Shown: piece after piece, positions 37,126 to 58,701 of the stretch
Layout: every line of letters begins with the position of its first letter
Position numbering within the stretch: the first letter of the stretch is position 1
From: Catajapyx aquilonaris
Lineage: Eukaryota
Direction of reading: 5' to 3'
Assembly (NCBI GenBank): GCA_000934665.2
Contig: KZ538116.1
Span: forward strand, 62,001 to 121,938
DNA length: 59,938 nucleotides
The notes under the pieces: generated by a model
The model's database searches: none
Told to the model about the DNA's origin: nothing
What the model saw: only the letters and a program-made list of their open reading frames with translations
Translations under genes and position numbers: made by a program

Positions 37126-38183
37126 CGGGGTTGGTAAACCCGGTTGTTTTGGTTTAAACCAGGTTTAATTTCAAATTTTTGGTTCTAATTAATTTAAACA
37201 GGTTGTCACTTCTTGTCATCTACATACGTATTTCCATATCTCGAATGCCCATTCTCAACTCATAGTGAGGTAAATAATAAGTTATACTTTTGATTAAGAA
37301 AATGTTTCATGCTCAAAATTATAGTTACAGTATCATGGAATGGGAATTCCCCTTTGGAAGGGAATTTCGCATGGAGTGGTTCATTAGAGTGAAGTTAGGT
37401 GGAATGGGCATAAAAACATCTTTTTTGGATTTGTTGTTCTATTTCAATTAATAGGTGGATATGAATATATCCTCATTACTTTTTTAACTTTATACAATAT
37501 GCATATGGAAAGAAGAATGCAGTTTTCATATTTTATGAGAAATTAAACGTTATAACAAAAATATTGCACTCATGTGGGTAACTAATGGAATAAAATTCGC
37601 GTTTTACCCAATTTTGCTTAAAAATCTCCAGTAAGAAAATGAAAATGACAATTTCATACCTATATAATAATATCCCTTCAAGTGAAAAAATATTTATGCT
37701 AATCTAATAAATGTGCAGGGGCCCCGTGCCCCCCCCCCCNNNNNNNNNNNNNNNNNNNNNNNNNNNNNNNNNNNNNNNNNNNNNNNNNNNNNNNNNNNNN
37801 NNNNNNNNNNNNNNNNNNNNNNNNNNNNNNNNNNNNNNNNNNNNNNNNNNNNNNNNNNNNNNNNNNNNNNNNNNNNNNNNNNNNNNNNNNNNNNNNNNNN
37901 NNNNNNNNNNNNNNNNNNNNNNNNNNNNNNNNNCCCCCCTCCCCGAACCGGAATCCTGGCTACGTCACTGACTCTCTGTATTTAAAACTACCCATTTTAC
38001 CCCACCTGACCCTACTCATTAGGTTAATTAGATTATTGAATGATTTAATTTGGCTAATTTTGCAATAACATATAAGGTAAATTTTAGCAGTAATTGGGAT
38101 TACTTTTCATTTAAGAAAACCATGATTGTTAATTTTTTTTTAATCCACTAGATTTAAACCATGGTTTAAACCAGCCAACCCTG
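37126..38183. mobile_element. Possible hAT-like non-autonomous element spanning the gap, with a nested element end
   Basis: C(G/A)GGGTTGG termini with repeated GGTTTAAACC subterminal palindromes. A nested GGCTACGTCACTG terminus at about 37958-37970 follows the poly-C tract. No clean TSD. Confidence 0.4.
37740..37933. other. Assembly gap (N run) flanked by poly-C
   Basis: Run of Ns; a second 5-N gap follows poly-C at 44952-44956. Confidence 0.99.
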
Positions 38184-44300: not shown

Positions 44301-47300
44301 GTGCTACATTTGACCACCTGGGAGTAATGGGCCAACTGGATTGGGGTGCAACAAGCTACATAAAAATAACTACTTTGGGTGTTATTAGTGGTAACTAAAA
44401 GCAACCCATGAACTTGGAGCACCCTGTATATAAGACGGTAATGTGTGCAGATTCCTAAGCATATATCATTAGTCACTATCCATTTTTAACCCATTCAAAT
44501 CTAATCTCATGATATGAAATTTCCTTCCTGAAGGAGGAATTACATAATGTGGACTGAAATATTTTCAGCAACTTGATTTGATTAATCCTTGTCCAGTTCT
44601 GAATAATTGTGATCTTGCACATTGAGGCTGTTGCACACTAAAATAATGATTTTAAAAAATAAGCAAGGGCTTCCAAAAATTACAGGTATGAAGAGGCATT
44701 TTTATTGTTGTCTCATTCTACACAAGAAAATGAACCATTGCAGCATATCTCTCTGCTCAGCCCTTGTAATAAAGGACCTTGGCATGGAATCAGGTGCCTT
44801 CCATGAAGAGGCTTATGTCTGACAGGCATGGGATATGATTCAAGTTCCACTGTGATAGGGTGATACTCCTAGTTTCAGGACACTGATGCCAAATACAGTC
44901 AGTTACTGTATGGCAGTGGTTTGCTGAACTGACATGCCCCCCCCCCCCCCCNNNNNCTCAGGTGATTCAATTGTGGGGGTGGAAGCATTTTGCCAGATGG
45001 GCAGGGATGAGGGATCAAGGCAAGAATCTGCCATATAAAGAAACGGCATTGCACATATACATCACACTGCCCATACACACTTCCTCTCCCAAGAGAGAAT
45101 TGCCAGCGGGAGGCAGGGGAATGTCAGTTCAGCAAATGGAAGGTCTTACAGTACGTAATGCAGCAGTTGGAATAGATATATTCAGGTCTCTGACAGATTT
45201 ATTACTGAACAGTCAAAAGTATTGCAAGGAAGGTAACAGGCATGTTAAAACTATTCAGTATGATTTACTTTAAACATGACTGACGTGATCTTTTTTGTCC
45301 TCTGTGTGATTTTTGCATCTGCACAAGTTGATGTGTCTTAATCTTGGTCTTATATGTGGTCTCCTTCAACACACACAGACTGCCAGATCGTCATGCTGCT
45401 ATTCAGCAGCAAATGATGATATTCATTTTTACAAAGAAATGATTGGAAACAGTTTCATGTCCTTCCTAGAAATGTAATGCTGCTACTCTTAAAAATAAAT
45501 TCTAGAACATATCCCCAATGCTAATTGATATATTTATTCCAAATTGCCAACTTGTTAAGTATTACCACATATGTATGCAGGTAAATAAAGTAACCAGATT
45601 TTGCTGCTTTGTTGCAATAATTATGGTAACAATGTTGATTGTCTGGTAGTTTCATTCACCTGTTTGACTTGAAAATTTAAGCAAGATACAGTACTGTACA
45701 TGTGCTTCTATTTATCCAAATTGTCATATAGAAAGCATGATATTTTTTTTTAGCTTGGCATTTCCATGCGTTTTTACTGTGAACCATTTCAGGTAGGAGA
45801 AGGTCGTGCCTTGTACAACTTGGGCAACGTCTACCATGCCAAAGGAAAGCATTTGGGTCGACTTGGTCAACAAGATCCTGGCGAATTCCCAGAGGAAGTC
45901 AAAGTGTGTCTTCTAAAGGCTGTTGAATACTATGAGTGAGTGTAAAACTCAGAAAAAATCTGCTTCGGAGTTGTTATGGCTTATGTTCTTTACTTCAGGG
46001 AAAATTTGAAAATCATGCAGGAACTAGGAGACAGAGCAGGACAGGGGAGGGCTTGTGGTAACCTTGGAAACACACACTACCTTTTGGGGAACTTCCGAGA
46101 AGCGATAAGGTATCACACAGAGGTAAGGCATAATTGAGTTTGTAATCTAAGAAAACTAATTTTGGTGCACTGCTTGCCATGAAGTTCAATATGAAATAAA
46201 TTGTGGTGTACTGCTTGATTTCTTCTTACAGTAATTTTATTTCAGTTCAACTTATGAGGAACAAATTGTAATTAGTTAATAACATTTGCATCACATTTAT
46301 TGCAGAGGCTGAAAATAGCTAGAGAGTTTGGTGACAAGGCCGCAGAACGAAGAGCACACACAAATCTGGGCAACTCTCATATATTTTCAGGGGAATTTGA
46401 AGTTGCCGCTGAACACTACAAGTAAGTGCCAGATAACCTTGGATGCTTTGCCAGCCTTTTATGCTTATCATACTAATTTCACAAAAATTTACTTGGCAGA
46501 AAGACCCTGGGTTTGGCCCAAGAACTAGGTGACAGGGTTGTGGAGGCCCAGGCATGCTACAGCCTAGGAAACACCTACACTCTTTTGCGTGATTACCCAA
46601 CTGCAATCGAGTACCATATGCGTCATCTGCATATTGCCCAGGAGTTGTCAGACCGAGTTGGAGAAGGAAGGGGGTGTTGGAGCCTAGGGAATGCGCATGC
46701 TGCCATGGGAGACAATGAGAGAGCCCTCCACTTTGCCACAAAGCATTTGGACATTTCAAAAGAGGTTAGTCTTCAAACTCTCTTTTGGTGATATTTTAAC
46801 CTTGAGTTGCATAGTGTCTGTTGGACCAATAGCTGACATTTTTGTGGGTGCATAGAGGAAGTTGCATAACATGTCACATGAAAGAGTTACAACCATGAAT
46901 TTGGGAACAAAATTGGATCTGCATGAGGGAAATTCTTTCCTTTAATATTTCTCTTCTTTGCCCTGTAGCTGGGAGACCAGGTAGGTCAGGCAACAGCTCA
47001 GATGAACGTGTCCAATCTTCAGAAGCTCCTAGGGGTCGAAGATTCCGGCAGCATAAGGAGACATAGTGACACCTGTGTTGAAGGTTCCTCCCAGCAAGAA
47101 AAGAAGACTGCTGCTGGCAGAAGGAAGAGCATGGAGATGATGGATCTGCTTAAGGTTGGAGTTTATATATCGTATGATAAAATGTATCACTGTATGGTTT
47201 TAGAAATGTTAACCTTCAAAACTCGTAGCTCGTAGGATACATTTTTTTCACTCAAATAATTCACTTTTGCTCATTTTCATGCCGTTATTGTTGTTGTTAA

Positions 47301-53639: not shown

Positions 53640-55122
53640 CAGACCATGGAGTAGAGTTTGACACCCTGAAATGTTAGATCAATGAGATGAAAAAATTCAT
53701 GTGGCAGATTTAAAAGCAGCTGAGCTTGTGGGGCGAACTTGCTTCTTTTCCCTAAGTGTACTGTCCTAGTGTTGTTTGCTGCAGTCCAGTGAACTCAATG
53801 CAGTATTTCTATTGTCAACAATCACATGAAATGCAGGAAAAAAAGTTTTTCAAATAATTTATGAGGGCCAATTGCACCACAGTTGGTAAATTGGTTTGTC
53901 CTGGATTTTGCGTCGTTCAGCTAAATTTAACTGAGCGATTACTGTTGGAAAACCCGAGGTGTGTCACATGACCAGCAGTCGTACATTTGGTCCTGATAAG
54001 GAGTAAGGGTACTACAAATGGATAAAAGTTGTCAAGATCTTGTTAATGTTAGTCATTTAAACAAAAATAATAATAATAATTGATGTGAGCATTTCTATAA
54101 TGTTAAGCAACTGGACATCACACAGTACAGGAAATGTGCATGGGTCTCAAAGTGTGTAAAGAAGGTCAGCAAATGGAATGTGCATTTCCTTAATCAAGCT
54201 TTCGATATTATGATGGTGGGATGAAGTTTATATTATTTATTTTGATGACGGGTGGGGAGAGGGCGGGGGGGTGAAGGGGAAATTCTCTGGGTCTTTCTGG
54301 AATTTTTGGCTGGAGAAAGGGGCGAAAAAAAGAGAAGAAAGTGATGCAAATTGTTTTAAAGTGGATGCAGTTTTAAGGATATGAAGCACATGTTCATCAC
54401 GTGTATATAGCACATAATTTTACGGGTGAAGTGATATCTTTCCTTGAAGTAGGTAAGACTTTTAAAAGTCACCAAAGCACAAAGAATTTTACGAGAATTT
54501 TGAAAAAGCCCGATAAACTGTGTCCCACATACTTCCCATTTCTGTAAGTTACGTTTTTCTCCGTTGTTATTGAAATTTTAATACTTACAACCTACTTGTA
54601 CTCATGGAGATAAAAGGATTGTGCCAAGGTCTGAAAGTTCTTCCGAGAGTTGGGAGAATGTAATTTCAGAGGAGATGGAAGCTTATAATATTTAAGACAA
54701 AAAGCGAGTTCTTCATTCATTTCATCATTTCGCCCATTTCTGCATAACAAATTACTCATTATTGTACCTTCTTCCAGTGCTGTATACTTCCAATGTTTAA
54801 GTTTTAGTAACCTAATTTTGCATTTAAATGCTGCATTTCTATTAATGTGCCCAGCAACGTAACGCTGGCTATTATAATTTTCAGGAGTGAGAGGAAAAAA
54901 GCGCCGAGTATAATGATAGTTTGTATATTTTATTAGTCCATTTTGATTTTATACTACAATCTGCATTAGTACTGGTGATACCCACTGTATATTTTTGTCA
55001 GGAAAAGTATGCTGTACCACAAAGTCTCTTGTTTTTTCACAAAAATAAAAATTGGAAGCGTTGAAAACAGTGACCAGAGTGTACATGATAGAAATTTTTG
55101 TGCCTGTATATTATATTCCTGA

Positions 55123-56851
55123 TCATTTATTCAAGCAGATGGTCTTGACGAGTGCCTCGGTGACGCAGTACGGGTCGCAATTGGCTGCTGGGCGCCGATC
55201 TTCAAAGTACCCAAAGCCGCTGTCTGCCACAAGTCTTGGAATTCGAATGCCAGTGGTGCGGTTTGCAACACCTTTGAGGTGGAAAAATTCATGTCACTTT
55301 GCGCCCTTTCTTTCTTCGTTAGAGAAGATGCAAACCAATTGAACGGAAATACCTGCAGAGAATTTTTCTTGTGGCTTCTCATCACACCAGTACTTGGTGA
55401 TCGAGTCGTATGATAACAGGTGGTCTGCGTGCCTGTTGGACAGCTTGTCTATTCCTTTCTCAATTTCGCTGAAATGACGAAGATGTCGTTACTAAGGCGA
55501 GAAGTTTATAGCAGTAAGTGAACTCACATGAGTCCGCCTTCCTCTCTCATAGGTTGAGTGGAAAAGGTGACGTAGCAGGAGTTGGCTTTCCAGTCTCCAG
55601 AGAATGGTTTGGGATCAAAGCTGACGCTGAGGCCAAAGTCTTCCGCCACTCTCTGGAGAATGTACCGAGCCATCCAGTGGTCATCACCCATCTGGATACC
55701 TACGCACGGGCCAAGCTGGAACTCCCACTGCGTAATGTATTGAGAGAAATGTTTGAGACAGATCCTTGCGTACTGGTTATTGATAAAAGTAATGCCAATT
55801 TACTGACCTGTGCCGGTGTACTCTGCCCTCCTGCCCCAGAGATCTTGACGCCTGCGTGGATGCAGGCCTTAATGTGGGCAAGGGATACCTCTCTCCCCAT
55901 GGCTTGGTTAGGCCCTATGGCCCCATAGTAGGAGTAGGTTGGATCTGGGCCTCCCATGGGTCCAGACTTGGGCCAGCCGTACGGACGGGTGTCCAGGTCC
56001 AGCAGGATGTACTTCTGCGTCATCCCAAACCAAGGCACTGAATCAGCTGCCTTTTCCATGACCTCCAAGCAGGAATGGCGCTTGTTGCTGTCCACAGGCT
56101 TTCTGGTGTACTTAAATGACTCGCAGAGAACCAACTTGTAATGGAACCATGTAACATCACATCAGAAAACTTGCATCGTATGCACTCAAAATATCGGCAT
56201 GAGCAAAGTACCTTGTGATGCCCTCCGAAAAAGGGGTCATCATAGATGGTGGCTGGGTAGAGGTACAGGTCTGCGTTGGTAGCTTCTGCCTGATCAGTGC
56301 AGCTCCCATCATACGACCAGAGAGGGACGTCTGATACGGTTTCAGGGGTAAAGGGAATACTTCGCAGCTTGGAGCGCAGCTCGTGAATATGGTCCAGGTA
56401 GACGTAGGTGACCAGGCACGTGTCTTGAGGCTGGCTTATTGTGAGGTAGCGGGACAGCACCGTGTTACATGTGTTACTGGGCTTCACTCCCTGGGTATGA
56501 ATAATGTAGGAGTCTTTCTTGTCGCACTGGTGGAACAAGAGGGATGGTGTCGCAATTACAGCATACTATTCGCATTGGAGCAACATGACCAATTTCCAGT
56601 GAACTCACTGGAGACTTGCGACAATATTCGGCCCCAATGGGCATCGTCAGGGATTGAAACAAAATTAATCATTCTGAAATATCATGATGTCACTTTAAAG
56701 GGCATACCCCGCATTCCTGTGGTCTGTGCGCCATCGTGGTGAACGTGCCTGGAGAGCTCTTGATGAAATTGTCACCGTCACTCAGAATTTCTCCTTTGGT
56801 GGTAATTAGGAGGAGGTACTTCTTCCAGTTTTTTGACCCCCTCCTTGCCAT
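55123..56851 (-). CDS. Glutamine synthetase II-like protein with a degenerate active site
   Basis: Exons 56851 (or 56734)-56708, 56526-56212, 56134-55808, 55727-55528, 55468-55353 and 55271-55123, all GT-AG and in frame. GSII motifs: [54 protein letters not shown]. Confidence 0.88.
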
Positions 56852-57199
56852 CTGTTGTTGATCTTATTACAACCATGACAACACCACTTCAAAGCACAAC
56901 GGTCAAGCTTACTATGGTTACATGGTAGGCCTACACAAAGTCCGTGTACTACAGTACGGGTTGTCCTGTACTGTATAGTACAGTACCACTTGTATTGTCA
57001 GCTGCCAATTTACTCTTGTTATTCACAGCCTGCAACAATGTTCACTTTGTGTGGAACGGGTGACCATCAACAATCTACATGAGTCATACTTGCATCCGGA
57101 AACCAAAACAACAGTGAACTAACTTAATACTACAGTGACATTCTGTGCTGGACATTTTTAAACTTCTTTATTGGCTTACAAACTAAAATACAGAGCAAT

Positions 57200-58701
57200 T
57201 CAAATTATAGTGAATCCACGAATGTACCTCCTGTACCACATAAATGACGTTGCACCGCACAAGGCATACCTGTGCGAGAGAATACGATCAATTAATGCAT
57301 GGAAAATGGAAGCGCAGGATGAGGCTTTACCATGTGAAGATGTATGAGAGATGCTCGTTGCGTAAGGACACTCTGGTCTGTCCTCCAATGGGTCCTCCTG
57401 GAACGGTGGATGTGTATGCCGCGTCCAGGAAAACAGGAGCTGCATCCACTACTTGTGCCATGGCGTTTATATCCCTGAAAATACAGTTGGCATCTCGCGC
57501 TTACTCTTCTCAGAAGAAATGAACCTGTGGGTTTGAATGCTCCAACGTTAAACCACAGTTTGAGCTAGTGAGATAAACTGCACCTGTGGAACCAAGTGTT
57601 CTGCAGTGGGTCGTTCTTAGGGGTAAACTGCGGCCTCTTTTCAGTCACTCTGACCACTCCAACAATCTCCACCTCTTCGCTAACTTGACCTTCAGGACGT
57701 GCTGCAGGGTTCTTGTTTTTCCGGGATACCCAGCCACGGTTTACCAAGATTGTTGCACTGAAAGGTGGTCGCATAGAACCATAGTTCATAATATTGAGTC
57801 TGTAATATTCACTCACTTTCTGTCGGACAGTTTGAAGGGAGTGACCACAAGAGTACCCGACTGCCCCGCATTGTTGAGATTGATAATGGCACCCCCCGGG
57901 TTAGGTTTGGCCTCGGCTGAACTCAGCAGGGAGCGAGGACCAAGGTACAGCTCCTGAGAGTGGTCGAATTTGCCCCGAACGATCACCTTCCGATACTCAA
58001 GGTCCTGCAACTCGCTCAAACTGAAAAGAGATGGCCAATAAGATCCCAGCCAAAGACGGCGATAATTTGAACCCACTCTTGAGGCAGCTCAATAGGATCA
58101 GCGTGTATTCTCTCCTCCAGCGAAGCAATGAGGTTGAGCTTCCAGGCACGCCGCTTAACCTGCCATGTTCCAAGGCCAAAAGCGGCAACTGGGATTACCT
58201 GCCCAAATTAAGTACGATTAGAGAAACCATCAGGTGTGACGACATTCACTGTGTCCATACCAGCAGAAGGTACCCACTTGGTCCGATGCCAAACAGCTTC
58301 TTTTGAACGGCCTTGAAGGACGTGCTTGTGACTTGCTGCGACTGTTTGGGTGACGTGCTGAAGAGCAGGGGTTGCTGAGGGGGCCGCTCTGAGAGGAGAA
58401 TCTGCACAAGAATCATGTCAATCATGAGCTGGAGTGGCGGACACTTATTTTCCTTGTCAATTACATACACGTGAACATTTAAGCACTGGGTATACACATG
58501 TGGACTTTTACGAACACTATTGTGGGCACGTATTGTGTAAGTAGTATAGTGCTGCAAAGTCATTCCCTTACAGTGCATTGAGGTTGATGGGAATTTTTCT
58601 TGTCTGTCCTTTACCGCGAATGTCATAAGGCGATTCAGCCAGACAGTACGTACCTTGAGGCAGCTCGTGCCCCTTAAACCGGGCCATACCGCTCGGTGCA
58701 T
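57200..58701 (-). CDS. SURF1: SURF1 cytochrome c oxidase assembly factor
   Basis: Exons 58701-58654, 58401-58261, 58198-58077, 58020-57817, 57757-57584, 57474-57331 and 57269-57200. Motifs: [66 protein letters not shown]. Confidence 0.95.

Follow-up and report, generated by a model that had tools for sequence, protein, structure and literature searches.

Glutamine synthetase (GS) is central to nitrogen metabolism and neurotransmitter recycling, and to our knowledge lengsin, which belongs to the class I branch, is the only well-known non-catalytic animal relative of the enzyme. The locus described here lies in a 59,938-nucleotide stretch of Catajapyx aquilonaris DNA (contig KZ538116.1; this whole stretch is called the window below) and raises the question of whether an intact gene related to the class II enzyme (GSII), but altered at its active site, can still encode a glutamine synthetase and, if not, whether its product is kept for some other role or is simply decaying. 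We find it plausible that the gene encodes a lineage-specific GSII pseudoenzyme that would keep the fold and the nucleotide side of the active site, and we give this reading a probability of roughly 0.55.

Gene model, N-terminus and genomic neighbourhood

The minus strand of the window was read over 54600-57400 and the exons were joined by coordinate. The GS-like gene (56851..55123, minus strand) has six exons with a spliced frame of 1251 nt, that is, 416 codons followed by TGA, and no internal stop. Its five introns (181, 77, 80, 59 and 81 nt) all run from GT to AG, and all ten splice dinucleotides are canonical. The model of the first-pass annotation, with six in-frame exons, canonical splice sites and no premature stop, was thus reproduced exactly. 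Residues are given in human numbering, which was set by exon-by-exon phmmer comparison with all PDB chain sequences. The exons are as follows:

56708..56851, minus strand: exon 1 (putative), 48 codons, ATG at 56851-56849; placed by frame and GT donor
56212..56526, minus strand: exon 2, 105 codons, N-terminal beta-grasp domain; phmmer match
55808..56134, minus strand: exon 3, 109 codons, equivalent to human GS 96-201; phmmer, residue-level alignment
55528..55727, minus strand: exon 4, 200 nt, ending in phase 2, equivalent to human GS 202-267
55353..55468, minus strand: exon 5, 116 nt, first 21 residues approximately human 270-290
55123..55271, minus strand: exon 6, equivalent to human GS 316-362, TGA stop at 55125-55123

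All 16 PDB sequences matched by the exons were class II glutamine synthetases, and the exon order was collinear with them. For exon 2, residues 27-100 aligned to GS 17-90, with Drosophila GS2 (7cpr) as the top match (E 1.1e-18) and human GS at E 6e-12. Exon 3 aligned end-to-end with GS residues 96-201 (E 4.4e-30), exon 4 with 202-267 (E about 1e-24) and exon 6 with 316-362 (E about 1e-17), and in exon 5 residues 2-22 alone aligned, to GS 270-290, with an E value of about 1, which is not significant. The earlier assignment of the gene as a GSII-class paralogue is therefore upheld, since the matches of exons 2, 3, 4 and 6 to GSII chains are collinear and have E values of 1e-17 to 4e-30. Alignment to GLUL and Drosophila GS had been proposed as a check; the exons align to both human GS and Drosophila GS2, and the N-terminal domain is nearer to the insect enzyme. 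A Pfam scan of the single exons gave 22.0 bits for Gln-synt_N (exon 2, E 1.2e-4) against a cut-off of 33.4, and 21.6 bits for Gln-synt_C against a cut-off of 24. Judged by its sequence, the predicted protein is a class II GS homologue in which the N-terminal beta-grasp and the C-terminal catalytic domains are both present and collinear. It differs from GSII in length at three places, every one in frame, and the numbering offset to human GS goes from 61 at exon 4 to 53 at exon 6. At the 3' end an AATAAA hexamer (55131-55126) overlaps the final two codons directly before the TGA, and another AATAAA is found near 54930.

The protein was also said to carry a long N-terminal extension. Because exon 2 lacks a Met codon and its reading frame extends upstream no further than the acceptor, translation must begin in an earlier exon. 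Proposed exon 1 is the natural choice for this and is provisional: its ATG is the first after an in-frame stop four codons upstream, it joins in frame with a GT donor, and it matched none of the Pfam families. With this exon the protein would extend approximately 55 residues beyond GSII, 48 of them from putative exon 1. The claimed extension depends for the most part on this putative first exon. The first 20 residues of the exon 1 product include six Arg/Lys and no acidic residue, and one may speculate that this basic N-terminus resembles a mitochondrial presequence. The Drosophila GS2 study describes an N-terminal meander needed for both activity and oligomerization (PMC7764910), and a different N-terminus in a GS-like protein could alter assembly.

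The following neighbours were recognized in the window:

5.1-10 kb, plus strand: hamartin/TSC1
11.6-25 kb, minus strand: laminin gamma chain
34.3-34.9 kb: zinc-type dehydrogenase fragment
48-48.9 kb: GoLoco-repeat protein (Pins/GPSM-like)
51.6-52.6 kb: TPX2-domain protein
57.2-57.9 kb, minus strand: SURF1, stop at 57202-57200 and AATAAA at 57172-57167

The SURF1 stop and AATAAA lie approximately 320 nt upstream of the proposed GS-like ATG; the two genes follow one another in head-to-tail order on the same strand, so closely that there is hardly space for a promoter of the GS-like gene. Among the 120 best matches of the hamartin exon there were arthropod proteins only, with those of dragonflies, a cockroach and termites at the top (58-62%), and the laminin exon matched insect gamma-1 chains at 59-64%, followed by vertebrate gamma-1 (51-56%) and gamma-3 (43-48%). 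A vertebrate origin of the DNA was rejected because both exons match arthropods best, at 61-64%, and the neighbouring genes accordingly point to an arthropod-like host. Nothing was found when the window was scanned for Rfam families and tRNAs. The region from 36 to 48 kb, around the N runs (assembly gaps), has a lower GC of 0.35-0.43. In the human genome TSC1, LAMC3, GPSM1 and SURF1 are all located at 9q34, with GLUL near LAMC1 at 1q25, the paralogous region. The occurrence of TSC1, laminin gamma, GoLoco, GS-like and SURF1 genes within approximately 55 kb may represent an old bilaterian linkage, with the GS-like gene perhaps at the ancestral GS locus.

Active-site residues and the predicted loss of catalysis

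At the metal ligands E134, E136, E196, E203, H253 and E338 the GS-like protein reads T, K, Q, E, Y and E respectively, i.e. four of the six are replaced. The new codons are ACG for E134T (56020-56018), AAG for E136K (56014-56012) and CAG for E196Q (55825-55823) in exon 3, where N194 has also become Gly, and TAC for H253Y (55574-55572) in exon 4, where N255T is changed too. Ligation of a bound Mn ion has been described for E134, H253 and E338 (PMC9713474).

The glutamate/ammonium site comprises N248, G249, R299, E305, D63, S66 and Y162, with roles set out in PMC7764910 and PMC6601560, and it reads K, A, absent, absent, D, C and Y, so that five of the seven are changed. N248K lies at 55589-55587 with G249A adjoining it (exon 4), and in exon 2 the D63 equivalent is kept (GAT, 56310-56308) and the S66 equivalent is Cys (56301-56299). 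The flap carrying R299 and E305 (human 291-311) is replaced by 13 unrelated residues (55404-55363), is eight residues shorter and has no Arg. In the Drosophila GS2 study the ammonia site consists of D63, S66, Y162 and E305 (PMC7764910), and on that definition two of the four are kept. The same study names P208, S257, R324 and Y336 as the ADP contacts (PMC7764910); these four are all kept in the GS-like protein. R262, R319, R340 and R341 persist as well, which bears out the earlier statement that the nucleotide-side residues are retained. R299, R319, R324, R340 and R341 have been described as a positive substrate-binding cluster (PMC9713474). By exon, the retained residues are W130, Y162 and G192 in exon 3, E203, P208, S257 and R262 in exon 4, and R319, R324, Y336, E338, R340 and R341 in exon 6. 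K333 has become Gly, a change that carries no weight because most non-vertebrate canonical sequences of the comparison set have the same residue. Exon 3 further contains a three-residue insertion, PMG (55960-55952), in the loop equivalent to human 149-157, which is a contact between the two pentameric rings (PMC9713474).

Every substitution that the first-pass annotation had listed (E134T, E136K, E196Q, N248K, G249A and H253Y, together with the replaced and shorter flap) is present, the codon positions it gave for E134T and E136K are correct, and alignment and codons agree with it on the retention of D63, E203, R319, R324, E338 and R340. S66C, N255T, N194G and the PMG insertion come in addition to its list.

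The consequence of these changes can be judged against published mutants. The hamster GS alanine scan (PMC6601560) reports less than 5% activity for mutants of D63, E134, Y162, G192, E196, E203, H253, R299, E305, E338, R340, R324 and R341, 5-15% for E136, S257, R319 and K333, and 15-50% for S66, N248, G249, N255, R262 and Y336. On these tiers the GS-like protein has lost five of the 13 residues in the lowest group, plus E136 and four residues of the 15-50% group. For Drosophila GS2, it is reported that biosynthetic and transferase activity were both undetectable in the E134-equivalent mutant and that the E305-equivalent mutant loses the use of ammonium (PMC7764910). Since the loss of E134, E196, H253, R299 or E305 singly leaves less than 5% activity in the alanine scan, we infer, and strongly so, that synthetase activity is lost and that the GS-like protein very probably no longer makes glutamine. 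Its transferase activity would be expected to be lost as well, to judge from the published mutants. Because the protein fails the defining ligand set of the enzyme, it is not to be filed as a glutamine synthetase.

The predicted pattern, in which the metal and glutamate side is lost and the nucleotide side kept, holds. The first-pass annotation had gone further and claimed that the losses are concentrated on metal and glutamate ligands. This stands in so far as four of the six metal ligands and N248, G249, R299 and E305 are lost, but in a plain count of invariant columns approximately 9 of 23 listed ligands were lost versus approximately 18 of 73 others, so that ligands are not clearly more often lost. 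Many of the non-ligand losses adjoin ligands (G68, N194, V197, M198, G251 and S322).

Maintenance or decay

Conservation was judged against six canonical GSII sequences, all full-length and from a range of eukaryotes, which were drawn from 27 matched sequences of at least 330 aa; a column analysis on all 179 matched proteins was set aside because many of the representatives were aberrant fragments. The GS-like protein is 36-49% identical overall to the six canonical sequences and keeps 69 of their 96 invariant columns (72%), with 27 changed. GC3 of the GS-like gene is 0.64 compared with values of 0.40 for its introns and 0.36 for the flanking DNA, and it is the highest among the correctly framed coding stretches measured in the window, the neighbouring ones giving 0.39-0.60. 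The open frame, the in-frame indels, the GC3 and the kept invariant columns together favour maintenance of the predicted gene, albeit indirectly. Selection for a non-catalytic role, as suggested in the first-pass annotation, may be at work, with indirect signs of this kind in its favour.

The strongest competing explanation is a functionless duplicate on which selection does not act, or has ceased to act, and in which a stop or frameshift is yet to come. We consider this somewhat unlikely. It would fit the rapid evolution of the gene, for which a relative-rate comparison counted 72 lineage-specific changes versus 30 in the nearest canonical relative, P0289 (350 sites, p = 3e-5), and 59/29, 71/33 and 50/18 with three other outgroups, i.e. 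a rate 2 to 2.8 times that of P0289. It would also fit the nature of the substitutions, as E to K, E to Q, H to Y, N to K and G to A are all single-nucleotide steps, and the unsupported exon 1. When neutral substitutions (without indels) were simulated, open frames numbered 123, 48, 12, 3 and 1 of 400 runs at 5, 10, 15, 20 and 30% amino-acid divergence respectively, and the first two of these counts are compatible with decay. The low counts at 15 and 20% and the 72 lineage-specific changes also stand among the signs of maintenance. Against decay stand the 416 open codons with ten of ten splice dinucleotides and three in-frame indels, a GC3 well above the intron GC of 0.40, the 72% of invariant GSII columns that are kept, and the intact nucleotide-side arginines, E338 and E203. 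The neutral-decay argument is itself soft, because part of the divergence may predate the loss of catalysis and a recent death leaves no stop yet.

Decay would further be in line with the gene being a singleton, its orthologue having been detected in neither the protein nor the metagenome searches. With exon 3 as the query, a word-indexed protein search brought up 53 candidates, none of which scored, and an exhaustive search of the representatives of 1.84 billion clusters returned 1075 matches with no orthologue among the best 150. The top identity in these best 150 of 1075 was approximately 53-55%, the one exception being a 44-residue blastp match of 68% to a 79-aa fragment, and the combination of T, K and Q at 134, 136 and 196 was absent from them. 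A scan of metagenome contigs gave three loci and no orthologue (best 35% over the whole query; two 30-residue matches at 51%), and the look-alikes in the ESM Atlas were generic Gln-synt_C clusters only. As the protein collection holds no close relative of the host, the absence of orthologue matches is uninformative.

We consider it quite improbable that the protein is an active enzyme in which the GS scaffold serves another chemistry, acting for instance on some other carboxylate or amine. Bacterial gamma-glutamyl-polyamine synthetases and plant theanine synthetase are precedents for altered substrates, and the retained nucleotide contacts with R319, R324, R340 and R341, the ammonium-site residues D63 and Y162 that are retained, and a glutamate-side pocket and flap that are remodelled rather than simply deleted would all suit such an enzyme. 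However, all GS-like ligases with altered substrates that we know of keep the metal ligands, and the ATP-dependent acyl-phosphate formation of the superfamily needs divalent metals, whereas here four of six ligands are gone and one is now Lys. Moreover, replacing just one of these residues by Ala is enough to abolish activity, according to two mutational studies (PMC6601560 and PMC7764910).

An artefact, whether errors introduced when a normal GS gene was assembled or a mis-joined model, is barely credible. The window does have two N runs (37740-37933, 194 bases, and 44952-44956, 5 bases), but each lies over 10 kb from the gene. The differences are numerous and dispersed, affecting 27 of 96 invariant columns and roughly half the residues, and every one of them preserves the frame. 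Several of the substitutions take two nucleotide changes (e.g. Glu to ACG, Thr), and canonical GS queries found neither a second GS-like segment nor an alternative canonical exon in the window.

We therefore return to a lineage-specific GSII pseudoenzyme as the preferred reading. The gene would be a fast-evolving GSII paralogue whose product retains the GS fold with its two domains and the residues that contact ADP/ATP, but is predicted to bind the catalytic metals and glutamate no longer, which would make it a pseudoenzyme for glutamine synthesis. With Lys at both 136 and 248 and three acidic ligands lost, the pocket may be neutralized without metals. The protein would still be made and maintained in a non-catalytic role, most likely as an oligomeric subunit, perhaps a nucleotide-binding one, either alone or mixed with the canonical enzyme. 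The GSII active site is located where the C-domain of a subunit faces the N-domain of the adjacent one; as the site spans two subunits and D63 is kept in the N-domain, the GS-like protein could complete the site of a canonical neighbour even with its own pocket dead. Assembly with canonical GS is not assured, given the insertion in the 149-157 loop and a predicted N-terminal meander that differs.

Our search of the literature on GS pseudoenzymes and on insect and GSII paralogues found no account of an inactive animal GSII paralogue. A fuller version of the preferred reading would make this the first described animal GSII pseudoenzyme, an expressed, metal-free, nucleotide-binding and co-assembling protein that lends its D63-bearing N-domain and tunes or scaffolds glutamine synthesis, as one of several independent degenerations in arthropods; taken as a whole, this is rather unlikely. 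If the gene is maintained, its self-neutralized, metal-free pocket and intact nucleotide side would amount to a natural experiment: they could show which non-catalytic uses the GS decamer has and whether mixed decamers can regulate the enzyme. Automatic annotation would label the gene 'glutamine synthetase', and an activity that is very probably missing would then find its way into metabolic reconstructions of the host.

Comparison with known GS and GS-like proteins

Compared with canonical GSII (Drosophila GS2, 7cpr; human GLUL, 2ojw, 2qc8 and 8dnu), the GS-like protein shares the collinear domains, the ADP contacts, R319, R324, R340, R341, E203, E338, D63 and Y162, whereas it differs at E134, E136, E196, H253, N248, G249, N255 and S66, in the flap, in the inter-ring loop and at the N-terminus. 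Zebrafish glulc was considered as a counterpart and rejected, being far less divergent, with 70% identity to Glula (PMC11546858).

Other GSII-derived proteins with substituted ligands were found among the matches. Three of them, from the mites Leptotrombidium (RWS30593.1, P0081) and Oppia (XP_054166545.1, P0029) and from a rove beetle (XP_065170276.1, P0068), carry the database label 'glutamine synthetase-like', and the cluster of P0068 has two more members from Logan assemblies. A further four (P0058, P0077, P0137 and P0086) are metagenomic or transcriptomic. The mite and rove beetle proteins are 34-45% identical to the GS-like protein. P0081 has T, T and H at 134, 136 and 196 and Y at 253, but it has lost the arginines and E338, both of which are kept in the GS-like protein; P0068 has C and Q at 134 and 136. 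The derived states common to the GS-like protein and the mite and beetle proteins number 3/16, 3/13 and 3/10, with no excess over unrelated pairs, and a common origin with these degenerate proteins was rejected on this ground. The mite, beetle and GS-like cases thus look like independent degenerations rather than orthologues. In a quick preliminary tree of 31 rows the GS-like protein grouped weakly with P0289 and the mite proteins (SH-aLRT 84). P0068 and P0137 share 5/16 derived states, including W130L and E136Q, and may form a family of their own.

Lengsin, a GS-superfamily protein of the vertebrate lens, is regarded as catalytically inactive and as retained for another role; it derives from class I and is dodecameric. 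Both lengsin and the GS-like protein have the GS fold and both are regarded as inactive, in the latter case by prediction, whereas lengsin is of class I and the GS-like protein is of class II by every match. Lengsin is therefore the nearest precedent for a dead animal GS, from the other class of the superfamily.
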